Shown: positions 44,270 to 47,200 of the stretch, piece after piece | Layout: every line of letters starts with the position of its first letter | Position numbering within the stretch: the first letter of the stretch is position 1 | Assembly (NCBI GenBank): GCA_038064595.1 | Contig: JBBTSV010000003.1 | Span: 41,150-105,149 of the forward strand | From: Patescibacteria group bacterium | Lineage (GTDB): Bacteria > Patescibacteriota > Minisyncoccia > Phycocordibacterales > Phycocordibacteraceae | Reading direction: 5' to 3' | Length of the DNA stretch: 64,000 bases | Position numbers and translations under genes: made by a program | Notes under the pieces: generated by a model | What the model was told of the DNA's origin: nothing | Database searches by the model: none | Seen by the model: the letters and a program-made list of their open reading frames with translations, nothing else

Positions 44270-47200
44270 ATGGTAGATGTTCCCGTAAAGTCTGATGCCG
44301 CCAAGCGCGAGGAAGAGATCCTCGCGTTCTGGGCGCAAGAGCAGATCTTTAAAAAGTCGCTCGAGAAACCCTCGCCTAAGGGCGACTTCACCTTCTATGA
44401 AGGGCCGCCCACTGCCAACGGGATGCCGGGCATTCATCATCTTGAGGCGCGTGCGTTTAAAGACGCGATCCCGCGCTACAAGACGATGCGTGGCTACCGG
44501 GTGGAGCGCCGCGCCGGCTGGGACACGCACGGGCTCCCGGTCGAGCTGCAGGTCGAGAAAGCGCTCGGCTTCTCTGGTAAGCCCGACATCGAGAAGTACG
44601 GCATCGCGGCGTTTAATAAGAAGTGTCGCGAGAGCGTTTTTGAATATATCGATCTGTGGGCCAAGTTCACCAAGCGTATCGGCTACTGGGTCGACGACAC
44701 CACCGCCTACTTCACCTTTGACGCCTCCTATATGGAGGTATTGTGGAATGTCTTCGCGAAGACCGAGAAAGATGGCCGCCTCTATCGCGACTATAAGGTG
44801 GTGCCCTGGTGTCCGCGCTGTGGGACCGCCCTCTCCTCCCACGAGCTCGCACAGGGCTATGCCGAGGTGAAGGATCTCACCATCACCGCAGAGTTCAAGC
44901 TCGTCGACGATCCGACGACGTCACTTCTCGCGTGGACCACGACGCCGTGGACACTACCCGGGAATGTGGCACTCGCTGTGGGCGCGAAGATTACGTATGC
45001 GGTGATTGAAAAGAAGGATGAAGGGACAGGACCTGCTGTGCGATTTATCCTCGCGAAGGATCGTGTCGAATCACATTTTGGCACCGAGGGGTACACCATC
45101 GTTGCAGAGGTGAAGGGGAGTGAGTTGGTGGGAAAGAAGTATCAGCCGCTCTATGACTACGCCGAGAAGCTCGCGCAGGGGAGCGAGAAACAAAAGTTTG
45201 AAAAAGCATTTCAAGTGTATGCAGCCGACTTTGTGACGACCGAAGACGGCACAGGGATCGTCCACACCGCGGTGATGTACGGGCAAGAAGACTTCGAGCT
45301 CGGACACCAGGTCGGGCTGCCCAAGGTGCACCTCGTCTTTCCTGATGGGAAGTTTACCCACGGGACGGGCTCTCTCGCTGGGAAATCGGTGGTCGAGGAG
45401 ACAACATCGGTTGAGATACTGAAAGATCTCCAGACACGCGGCCTCCTCTTCTCGAAGGCGCCGTATACCCATACCTACCCCTTCTGTTGGCGCTGCAAGA
45501 CGCGGCTCATCTACTACGCGCGCAACTCGTGGTATATCCGCATGCATGACCTCCGCGACACGCTCGTTGCCGAGAACAACAAAATCCACTGGGAGCCAAA
45601 ATATATCCGTGAGGGGCGCATGGGCGAGTGGCTCGCGGGTGCCAAAGACTGGGCCATCAGTCGCGAGCGCTACTGGGGTACGCCACTCCCTATTTGGCAG
45701 AGTGCCGACGGGAGCGAGCGGATCGTTGTCGACTCAATCGAGATGCTGAAACAGCACACCAAGAAATCGGGTAACACGTATTATGTGATGCGTCATGGCG
45801 AGTCGGAAAATAACCTACTGCAGATTGCGAGCTGTGATTTGGGCCCTGCATATGGCATTACGGAAAGGGGTAAAGAACAGTCTCAAGTGGTGGCAGAAAA
45901 ACTTAGTACGAAGCATATTGATCATATCTATGCATCGCCACTTCGGCGTACTCGCGAAACAGCAGAGTATATTGCAGAACAGCTTGGTTTTGATAAAAGT
46001 TCCATACGGTATGATACGCGACTCCGTGAATTCGGTTTCGGAGAACTTAATGAGGGACCAATTGATGCGTTCACTCTATTTCGTACTACTCATGCATACG
46101 ATGAAAAGATCCCAGGAGGGGAGAGCTATCAGGATGTTAAGAAACGCGTGGGCGAGTTCATCAACGAAATTGAAGCAACTCAGTCCGGAAAGAACGTACT
46201 TATAGTTACGCACGGAGCGGGGGTTGAAATGCTTCAAGCAGTAGCACTTGGCGCAAACAAGATCGTCTCATCAAAAATACCAGACAGTGCACACACTCAT
46301 CGAGGTGAGTTACGCGAACTTGAGTTCATCCCGCTCCCGCATAATGAAGACTATGAGCTTGATCTGCATCGGCCCTATATTGATGCGGTGGTGCTCATGA
46401 GCGAGAAGGGAACAGAACTCAAGCGCGTCTCGGAGGTGATGGATGTATGGTTCGACTCCGGTGCGATGCCCTTTGCCCAAGCAGCCAAAGAGCGCGGCAG
46501 CGAGTCACTCGATGCATTTCTAAAAAAAGTGGCGTATCCAGCCGACTATATCTGTGAAGCGATCGACCAGACGCGCGGCTGGTTCTATACCCTGCTTGCG
46601 GTGGGCGTCCTCTCGGACCGCGGCACCTCGTATAAAAATGTCATCTCGCTTGGCCACCTCCTCGATGCCGAGGGACAGAAGATGAGTAAGTCGAAAGGGA
46701 ATGTGGTCGATCCGTGGGTTGAGATCGAGACGTGGGGCGTGGATGCGCTCCGATTTTGGATGTACAGCGTGACGCAGCCGGGTGACTCGAAGAACTATGA
46801 TGAGAAGACGGTTAAAGAGGCGGCCAAGGTGCTCTCGTGGATAGAGAATAGCGCCAAATTCTACACCTTGTTTAAAGATACCGAGCGTACGGAGGGTGCA
46901 GAGACCGTACTCGATCAGTGGATGCGTGCCCGTACGCGCGCCACGGTCGCGCTTATGACCGAGGCACTCGACGACTACCGCCCCTTTGAGGCGACACGCG
47001 CGCTCGCGAGTCTCGCCGAAGATCTCTCGCAGTGGTATGTACGTCGCGTGCGTGATCGCGTGCGCGCGGGAGACGCTGCTGCACTCACGACACTCCGCGA
47101 GACGCTCCACACAATCGCACGTCTGGCGGCACCGTTTGCACCCTTCCTCGCTGAAGAGGTGTATGTCCACGTGAAGCAGGAGCGTGACCCTGAGAGCGTG

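Follow-up and report, generated by a model that had tools for sequence, protein, structure and literature searches.

Among the described short histidine phosphatases, PhoE/YhfR (1h2e, 1ebb), the phosphoserine phosphatase PspA (4ij5), the alpha-ribazole phosphatase CobC (6nru, 6e4b) and GpgP Rv2419c (4pz9) share one fold of about 190-210 amino acids (aa) and a common RHG...R...E...H catalytic set, and they are free-standing metabolite phosphatases. In this report we describe a domain of the same fold, length and catalytic set that lies within the isoleucyl-tRNA synthetase (IleRS) encoded in a 64,000-nucleotide (nt) stretch of DNA, here called the window, from a Patescibacteria group bacterium of the candidate phyla radiation (CPR; contig JBBTSV010000003.1, positions 41,150 to 105,149). 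Unlike the enzymes just named, phosphatases of this kind are nested in a synthetase or encoded beside one. The closest described counterparts of the host enzyme are IleRS2 of Priestia megaterium (8c8w) and the T. thermophilus enzyme (1ile), which align with it over the full length, have the same domain order and type-2 C-terminus, and share its [A/G]XHH form of the HIGH motif; type-2 IleRS constitute the eukaryote-like, mupirocin-resistant class. The solved IleRS structures carry no domain at the hairpin that receives the insert, and the window IleRS is without zinc ligands on that hairpin.

Several described proteins join comparable parts in other ways. The actinobacterial RNase H/CobC-like acid phosphatase (NF005567, PRK07238, the Rv2228c type) likewise joins a CobC-like phosphatase to a nucleic-acid enzyme, but as an end-to-end fusion and not as a domain nested in the partner; its model is the third-best NCBIfam match of the insert (82 bits, below the cut-off of 326), and we know of no settled rationale for that fusion. 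The NF040702 family (ileS_w_GNAT) provides a precedent for an IleRS with an extra catalytic domain, although the accessory domain is a different one and the window protein, at 302.6 bits against a cut-off of 1999, is not a member; one CPR relative (P0195) carries both the His_Phos and the GNAT domains. The bifunctional protein PFKFB (6-phosphofructo-2-kinase/fructose-2,6-bisphosphatase) likewise combines a His_Phos domain with a second catalytic domain that binds nucleotide, but there the 2 domains follow one another and share a metabolite, whereas the window domain is nested.

Aminoacyl-tRNA synthetases are among the most conserved of enzymes and, to our knowledge, extra catalytic domains inside their cores are rare, each known case having been instructive on quality control or regulation. 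We found no description of a synthetase-phosphatase fusion in the literature that could be searched; the component families are known, and it is the combination of IleRS with a phosphatase that is undescribed there. The architecture is present in public databases as automatic Pfam annotation, mostly under the NCBI name 'class I tRNA ligase family protein'. The words 'phosphatase' and 'Patescibacteria' are both absent from a survey of 96,219 IleRS sequences (bioRxiv 10.64898/2026.02.03.703510).

Results

When the window IleRS was aligned with 8c8w, residues 2-497 corresponded to chain residues 2-478 and residues 691-1058 to chain residues 480-848. Because the alignment breaks at this point, we take aa 498-690 (nt 45761-46339) to be an extra segment, located where the solved IleRS2 structures have 1-2 residues. 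The insertion point lies between the motifs WGTPLPIW and DVWFDSG, where the hairpin of the second zinc knuckle has its tip. An earlier note, made from the letters of the window alone, had proposed that a histidine phosphatase domain resembling phosphoglycerate mutase (PGAM) is inserted in frame in ileS at nt 45770-46340, and had quoted the signatures RHGESENN and VTHGAG. The alignment shifts the limits of this insert only slightly, and both signatures are present (RHG at 508-510, and THG with H648). The insert matched PF00300 (His_Phos_1) over aa 505-662 (E=1.6e-34, 119.7 bits against a cut-off of 21.7), which together with the intact catalytic set bears out the proposed identity. We found no second His_Phos gene within the 64-kb window.

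The residues of the catalytic pentad are essentially fixed. In 120 close homologues, R508, H509, R560 and H648 were each present 120 times and E587 118 times, Asp taking its place in the other 2. The pentad is also kept in a divergent set of sequences (A1), which includes IleRS only 37-44% identical, and it is retained in every domain copy at every nesting site described below. Otherwise, the insert varies more than any other part of the protein, with a column conservation of 0.57 as compared with 0.73-0.90 elsewhere, and with about 41% identity between homologues whose cores share about 75%. Because the domain drifts while its catalytic residues stay frozen, its chemistry seems to have been retained, and from its sequence we predict that the insert, with its catalytic set intact, is an apparently active phosphatase. 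Conservation also extends to the peptides at the 2 junctions (TKKSGN... and ...[16 protein letters not shown]), which are modelled with high confidence.

An AlphaFold2 model of the domain alone had a pLDDT of 96 and adopts the PGAM-like alpha/beta fold. In Foldseek comparisons, this model superposed with a TM score of 0.79 on PspA (4ij5/4ij6) and 0.78 on PhoE (1h2e), the values for PspA, GpgP and PhoE lying between 0.76 and 0.79 and those for the whole group, CobC included, between 0.75 and 0.79. A family profile, searched against the Protein Data Bank (PDB), ranked PspA (2.6e-34), PhoE (1e-33) and CobC (5e-29) above the phosphoglycerate mutases; the best match in a PDB search with the single insert sequence was PFKFB (E=5e-13). 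As modelled, then, the insert is a complete histidine phosphatase of branch 1, is well folded, and belongs to the short type represented by PhoE, PspA and CobC. Its scores were below the curated cut-offs for CobC (TIGR03162, 85-89.6 bits against 162.9), for the mutases (TIGR01258 pgm_1, 30.5 against 81.7; NF038349 dPGM_arch, 89.2 against 225) and for PspA (NF045917, 66.9-72.6 against 350), even though PspA is its best structural and profile neighbour. Since the insert falls below every named subfamily cut-off, it is a member of the superfamily that belongs to no characterized subfamily, and for the same reason a substrate is not transferable to it from the characterized relatives. The anti-phage profiles of PADLOC-DB matched neither the insert nor the whole IleRS, and a link to defence systems was set aside on this ground; a free-standing relative (P0187, see below) gave one marginal match, to an Aga_Cas4-like nuclease model (E=4.6e-4).

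The host enzyme was identified as IleRS, in agreement with the earlier note, and from its sequence it is otherwise intact, because the whole protein scores above the cut-off of the ileS equivalog model TIGR00392 of NCBIfam (822.9 bits against 621.4) and because its HIGH-type motif, KMSKS and editing residues are conserved. The gene is a single unbroken open reading frame (ORF; coordinates in Table 1), and its 1129-aa product is recorded identically as a metagenome-assembled genome protein on 3 contigs (NCBI, ENA). Pfam matches comprise tRNA-synt_1 at aa 17-500 and again after 700, Anticodon_1, and DUF5915; the position of DUF5915 at the C-terminus and the nearest PDB structures (8c8w, 8c8u and 1ile) place the enzyme in type 2. 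Its class I signatures are GIHH (aa 54-57), an [A/G]XHH variant that a 2026 preprint ties to mupirocin hyper-resistance in IleRS2, and KMSKS (aa 804-808). The editing motifs of CP1 are TTTPWT (aa 223-228) and GTGIVH (aa 327-332), and T223, T224, H332, D341 and K807 are among the residues invariant in the family. The first zinc site is retained (CPRC 181-184, CWRC 406-409). A full-chain AlphaFold2 model (pLDDT 91.6, pTM 0.82) includes both junctions of the insert within its confident part, the blocks of the insert itself scoring mostly 86-96 and the last one 82; the top solved matches in a structure search with the whole model were type-2 IleRS, none of which has a domain at the position of the insert. 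The order argS-ileS-recO-...-glyS-like-metG within the 64-kb window is consistent with the sole housekeeping IleRS of the cell, charging tRNA-Ile.

The second zinc knuckle, whose hairpin carries the insert, has lost its Cys ligands on both arms (Table 1). Such loss is common among insert-bearing IleRS: 61 of the 73 that we compared have none of the 4 knuckle Cys. All 4 are found in 10 of them, as for example at a Yanofskybacteria locus (L004), and because these 10 retain the ligands, insertion would seem to have preceded ligand loss.

By comparison with homologues, the nested form is old and widespread. PF00300 and the IleRS domains were found together in 120/120 of the best homologues (63-72% identity), the named taxa among which are Patescibacteria, Paceibacterota, Kaiserbacteria and Minisyncoccota. 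A search with the insert against 1.84 billion representative proteins gave at least 99 nested occurrences in IleRS, in valyl-tRNA synthetase (ValRS) or in fragments of these among the best 150 matches, with whole-protein identity falling to about 35% (Parcubacteria, Peregrinibacteria, Peribacteria). In a scan of GTDB species genomes, 8 of 80 type-2 IleRS loci among the matches listed carried the insert (Patescibacteria, Paceibacterota, Yanofskybacteria, Spechtbacterales, Peregrinibacteria and Peribacteria, 2 being named only 'bacterium'), and the insert-free loci among the matches listed included 2 from Saccharimonadia, one from another Patescibacteria and every named non-CPR locus. The search of other CPR IleRS that the earlier note had recommended thus recovered the same insert in many of them. 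Its occurrence in each of the 120 closest homologues, and also in CPR IleRS that have diverged widely, shows the domain to be old.

GC content falls across the insert from about 0.57 to 0.43-0.47, and the GC content of third codon positions (GC3) is 0.40 as compared with 0.67 for the remainder of ileS. The earlier note had read this drop, which is real, as a sign of recent acquisition, but that reading conflicts with the presence of the domain in 120/120 of the closest homologues and with its GC3 in 11 other lineages, which is matched to that of the host gene (insert minus host, -0.10 to +0.07, as against the outlying value of -0.27 here). The maximum-likelihood change-point fit placed the low-GC3 tract at codons 522-684 (GC3 0.36; +29 log-likelihood units over a uniform model), and the blocks that bound it, YYVMRHGE and [16 protein letters not shown], are the 2 most conserved. 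Because recombination within such blocks would leave a tract with these boundaries, the low-GC3 core is a probable later and lineage-specific swap of a pre-existing insert, in which recombination with a lower-GC relative would have had its crossovers within the conserved junction blocks. The closest relatives, whether by insert or by core, have normal GC3. It counts against such a swap that no source of the low-GC cassette was found, since the most similar insert was only 55% identical; chimeric metagenome assembly is an unlikely source of the GC drop. No boundary or flanking repeats were found around the insert.

Among free-standing proteins, those most closely related to the insert are about 190 aa long. 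Residues 499-684 of the window protein align with residues 2-188 of one of these (P0187, 189 aa), and because the alignment is end to end, the nested module corresponds to a whole gene minus its start and stop. The gene contexts of 8 free-standing relatives included 4 cases in which the phosphatase gene lies between argS and an insert-free ileS, with gaps of 1-10 nt in 3 and of 17 nt in one; the remaining genes overlap the end of ileS by 4 nt, lie between argS and a convergent ileS, follow argS, or have no synthetase neighbour (one each). We then scanned metagenomes for loci that encode relatives of the free-standing phosphatase, and obtained 69 loci. In 41 of these a free-standing phosphatase gene directly precedes ileS, with the order argS-phosphatase-ileS in 39, and in 16 the phosphatase is nested in ileS at the same site as in the window. 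It follows argS in 4 (2 at a contig end; 2 with 1.3-1.7 kb of downstream sequence and no ileS match) and has no synthetase neighbour in 8; of these last, 7 show the greatest divergence (34% identity or less), while the other is on a 1-kb contig. The gene order around the free-standing form is infC-rpmI-rplT, smpB, argS, the phosphatase gene, ileS, recO, a CLIPPER/DUF11 protein and a class II synthetase; the infC-...-argS-ileS-recO order of these relatives matches that of the window. No relic of a phosphatase gene was found in the 356-nt gap between argS and ileS of the window.

Other features of these loci may be recorded here. NUDIX-box ORFs occur in 11/69 loci and never within 2.5 kb of the phosphatase, and NUDIX, which 3 loci had suggested, was dropped as a candidate for a tight partner; NUDIX genes recur more widely (L084, L089, L094, L005), mostly 3.8-5.3 kb upstream, with a few directly beside the phosphatase or ileS. 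At one locus (L086, 2682-5609, - strand) ileS is split in 2 adjoining ORFs (about aa 5-406 and 417-1115 in the numbering of the window IleRS) that are convergent with a free-standing phosphatase gene. Free-standing tandem His_Phos pairs of about 360-430 aa also exist (P0181, P0201, P0214, P0221, P0225, P0248, P0259 and P0262), and one free-standing tandem-His_Phos protein is named Candidatus Woesearchaeota, a DPANN archaeon.

We located every domain copy on the window IleRS by its flanking sequence, and found at least 4 insertion points: A (497/691), A2 (~705/716), C (~736/758) and B (~855-873/881). Site A is used by nearly all insert-bearing proteins; A2 is occupied in P0135, C in P0135, P0136 and P0211, and B, which falls after KMSKS and before the anticodon domain, in P0136, P0211 and P0261. 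A family with the domain at site B only comprises 10 clusters from Candidatus Abawacabacteria/Gracilibacteria, including that of the query P0261; the relatives nearest to it (62-63% identity) are insert-free, and by its core it falls with another IleRS lineage. Peribacteria have 2 tandem copies at site A, and in some CPR lineages the number of tandem copies per protein ranges from 2 to 4. ValRS is affected also. One such protein (P0144) has 4 copies, including one at an additional site that precedes WWGHRIP, and 69/119 related ValRS clusters from Gracilibacteria and Peregrinibacteria (P0403-P0520) have 1-3 His_Phos copies. In 61 of the 69 the domain occupies the hairpin that corresponds to site A and lies between WWGHRIP and DTWFSS. 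Rough trees built by neighbour joining placed insert-free CPR IleRS among insert-bearing ones and grouped the domains by site, a pattern that fits repeated gain and loss, though not strongly in view of the roughness of these trees.

Domains other than the phosphatase are also inserted in CPR IleRS and ValRS, namely DUF559, HU, a RAYT-like transposase and GNAT, which suggests that CPR ileS and valS are hot spots for in-frame insertion. The records with DUF559 (PF04480, endonuclease-like) and HU (PF00216) are CPR ValRS (P0426, P0461, P0435). The IleRS P0195 (JGI, 1066 aa), which may be truncated or split, has an in-frame RAYT/IS200-like tyrosine-transposase domain within the editing region, His_Phos at site A, and then GNAT.

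Discussion

The explanation towards which we lean, and which we rate slightly better than an even chance, is that the window protein is a bifunctional enzyme, an IleRS with an active phosphatase whose coupling to the synthetase has been selected. The IleRS part would charge tRNA-Ile as usual, the 2 activities coexisting in one chain. The insert would hydrolyze a phosphomonoester by way of a phospho-His509 intermediate, with R508, R560 and H648 holding the phosphate and E587 acting as the general acid, and selection would keep the phosphatase coupled to the synthetase either physically or stoichiometrically. The earlier note had suggested that the module could regulate or moonlight; we argue for selected coupling, and against an accidental pairing, because the same family stays beside ileS, nests at 4 or more points of IleRS and also in ValRS, and is never fused end to end; because its adjacency to ileS persists in 3 gene arrangements; and because the junction peptides are conserved. 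No head-to-tail fusion of phosphatase and ileS was found among the best 150 matches or the 69 loci. Our preferred, though unproven, idea of what the coupling achieves is that a phosphatase at the catalytic face of the synthetase would clear phosphorylated species that otherwise disturb aminoacylation. As to the substrate, the nearest characterized relatives point to a small phosphomonoester, and we place a nucleotide or other compound of this kind first among the candidates, at somewhat short of an even chance; a blocked tRNA acceptor end, phosphorylated at the 2' or 3' position, and a phosphorylated loop of the synthetase seem to us equally unlikely candidates.

Several considerations weigh against selected coupling. 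We know of no established biochemical link between a phosphomonoesterase and aminoacylation, and the nearest characterized relatives all act on small metabolites, as phosphatases unconnected with translation. The adjacency to ileS could be inherited synteny, and, because CPR IleRS and ValRS carry other odd domains, their hairpins may simply be permissive. With a median pI of 6.2, the inserts are mildly acidic and give no hint of binding to an RNA backbone, and the idea of RNA binding through charge was set aside for this reason. These points lead to the main rival explanation, which we hold to be rather unlikely on balance: a housekeeping metabolite phosphatase encoded next to ileS would have been copied into tolerant hairpins of IleRS and ValRS, and kept there neutrally for the guaranteed expression that this provides in a streamlined genome. 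The metabolite phosphatases as closest characterized relatives, the acidity of the domain, its rapidly evolving surface (about 41% identity, with the core at 75%), a copy number that varies from 1 to 4 and the unrelated domains in the same synthetases would all be expected from neutral nesting. It accounts less well for the conserved junction peptides, for an adjacency maintained in 3 arrangements (upstream, downstream with overlap, and convergent), and for the forms that are not seen, since across a gap of 1-10 nt the loss of one stop codon would be enough to produce a fusion, yet there was none among the matches and loci just mentioned while nested forms occur at 4 or more IleRS sites and in ValRS. 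A more specific possibility, which we consider unlikely, is that the domain is a dedicated partner of class Ia synthetases that removes a blocking phosphate, either from the tRNA CCA end (2'/3'-phosphate or pyrophosphate) or from a catalytic loop. Phosphorylated synthetase loops and tRNA CCA ends are produced by the toxin kinases and toxSAS enzymes of other bacteria, and a setting of conflict would fit because the domain has fast-evolving surfaces, changes in copy number and a probable cassette swap. If correct, the removal of blocking phosphates would represent a new repair or counter-toxin layer of CPR translation.

The remaining explanations fare less well. That the domain is the cofactor-dependent phosphoglycerate mutase of the cell, housed in IleRS, is improbable in our judgement: it is of the same superfamily, the archaeal dPGM model is its second-best NCBIfam match, one relative is labelled COG0406/K15634 (gpmB), and the small monomeric PGAM of S. 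pombe superposes on it at a TM score of 0.76, but its scores are far below the curated pgm_1 and dPGM_arch cut-offs, LREFGFG and THGAGV stand in place of the ERHYG and HGNSxR motifs of such mutases, and the family profile prefers PspA, PhoE and CobC. Automated metabolic reconstructions of CPR may nonetheless count the insert as 'phosphoglycerate mutase'. We give a little less credence again to the idea that the domain merely replaces the zinc knuckle as a support for folding or stability, its chemistry being irrelevant. The absence of all 4 hairpin Cys from 61/73 insert-bearing IleRS would be explained in this way, but the 10 enzymes that keep all 4 place insertion before loss, and a structural role does not predict 5 catalytic residues that are essentially invariant over hundreds of copies, free-standing homologues included. 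A recent horizontal transfer of the domain, with the GC drop as its trace, is very improbable. The compositional break is sharp (GC 0.46 against 0.57, GC3 0.36-0.40 against 0.67) and further low-GC islands of seemingly acquired origin occur in the window, yet the domain is at the same site in 120/120 of the closest homologues and in IleRS that are 35-45% identical, the junctions and catalytic residues are common to the homologues, and there is neither a compositional break in 11 other lineages nor a boundary repeat. Finally, an intein, the ORF of a mobile element, or an artefact of assembly or frameshift is hardly conceivable. CPR genes are known for insertions, and one relative does have an in-frame transposase-like domain; however, the window protein has no Hint, intein or endonuclease Pfam family, His_Phos_1 accounts for the whole insert, and the junction residues are wrong for an intein, the insert starting at K498 in place of Cys or Ser and H691-N692 being followed by Glu in place of Cys, Ser or Thr. 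The intein check suggested by the earlier note was therefore negative, and the unbroken ORF, the identical protein on 3 contigs and the lack of flanking repeats speak against an artefact.

Taken over the radiation, IleRS and ValRS in much of CPR are accompanied by a conserved and apparently active histidine phosphatase, adjoining them or nested in them, and adjacency together with several independent nestings is a classic signature of functional partnership.

Other features of the locus

The coordinates of ileS, its parts and its neighbours are collected in Table 1.

Table 1. Positions, in the numbering of the window, of ileS, of the elements within it and of the neighbouring synthetase and recO genes
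Feature	Position (nt)	Strand	Basis or remarks
argS, upstream neighbour	42231..43913	+	Pfam; free-standing phosphatase lies between argS and ileS in sister lineages
ileS, type-2 IleRS of 1129 aa with nested phosphatase	44270..47659	+	ORF; TIGR00392; best solved relatives IleRS2 8c8w and 1ile (T. thermophilus)
N-terminal part of IleRS (aa 1-497), with first half of Rossmann fold, CP1 editing domain, arm 1 of second zinc-knuckle hairpin	44270..45760	+	
HIGH-type motif GIHH (aa 54-57)	44429-44440		
First arm of former zinc knuckle: WQSADG as against WxCxxCG in relatives, Cys ligands lost	45695..45712	+	Alignments
Nested His_Phos_1 domain, aa 498-690	45761..46339	+	PF00300; domain model; aligns end to end with P0187
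RHG motif: R508, H509 (predicted phospho-accepting nucleophile), G510	45791..45799	+	Invariant R and H
Low-GC3 tract, codons 522-684, within insert between its 2 most conserved junction blocks	45833..46321	+	Change-point fit
R560, second arginine of predicted phosphate pocket (SPLRRT)	45947..45949	+	120/120 homologues
E587, predicted general acid (RLRE)	46028..46030	+	Glu 118/120, Asp 2/120
H648, predicted second catalytic histidine (VTHG)	46211..46213	+	120/120 homologues
C-terminal part of IleRS (aa 691-1129), with anticodon-binding domain and type-2 C-terminal domain	46340..47656	+	Aligns with 8c8w 480-848 and beyond
Second arm of former zinc knuckle: LMSEKG as against CxxC in relatives, Cys ligands lost	46394..46411	+	Alignments
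Conserved linker [27 protein letters not shown] in C-terminal part; position is that of KMSKS, aa 804-808	46679-46693	+	
recO, downstream neighbour, overlaps ileS end by 11 nt	47649..48209	+	Same order in relatives
Class II 2b-type synthetase	50148-51473		
metG	52458-53996		

About 10 low-GC patches in the window (GC 0.35-0.46, with a window mean of 0.54) coincide with low-GC3 ORFs. They include 8658-10045, 11973-12989, 24851-25606 and 37209-37754, the last of which has no Pfam match, and may represent acquired genes. Four synthetase genes, argS, ileS, the class II 2b-type gene and metG, lie within 12 kb (42231-53996). Upstream of argS is a small ORF (41682-42158) that matches a Trp-repressor-like family weakly, its 28.8 bits lying little above the cut-off of 27; in the corresponding region, relatives carry smpB.

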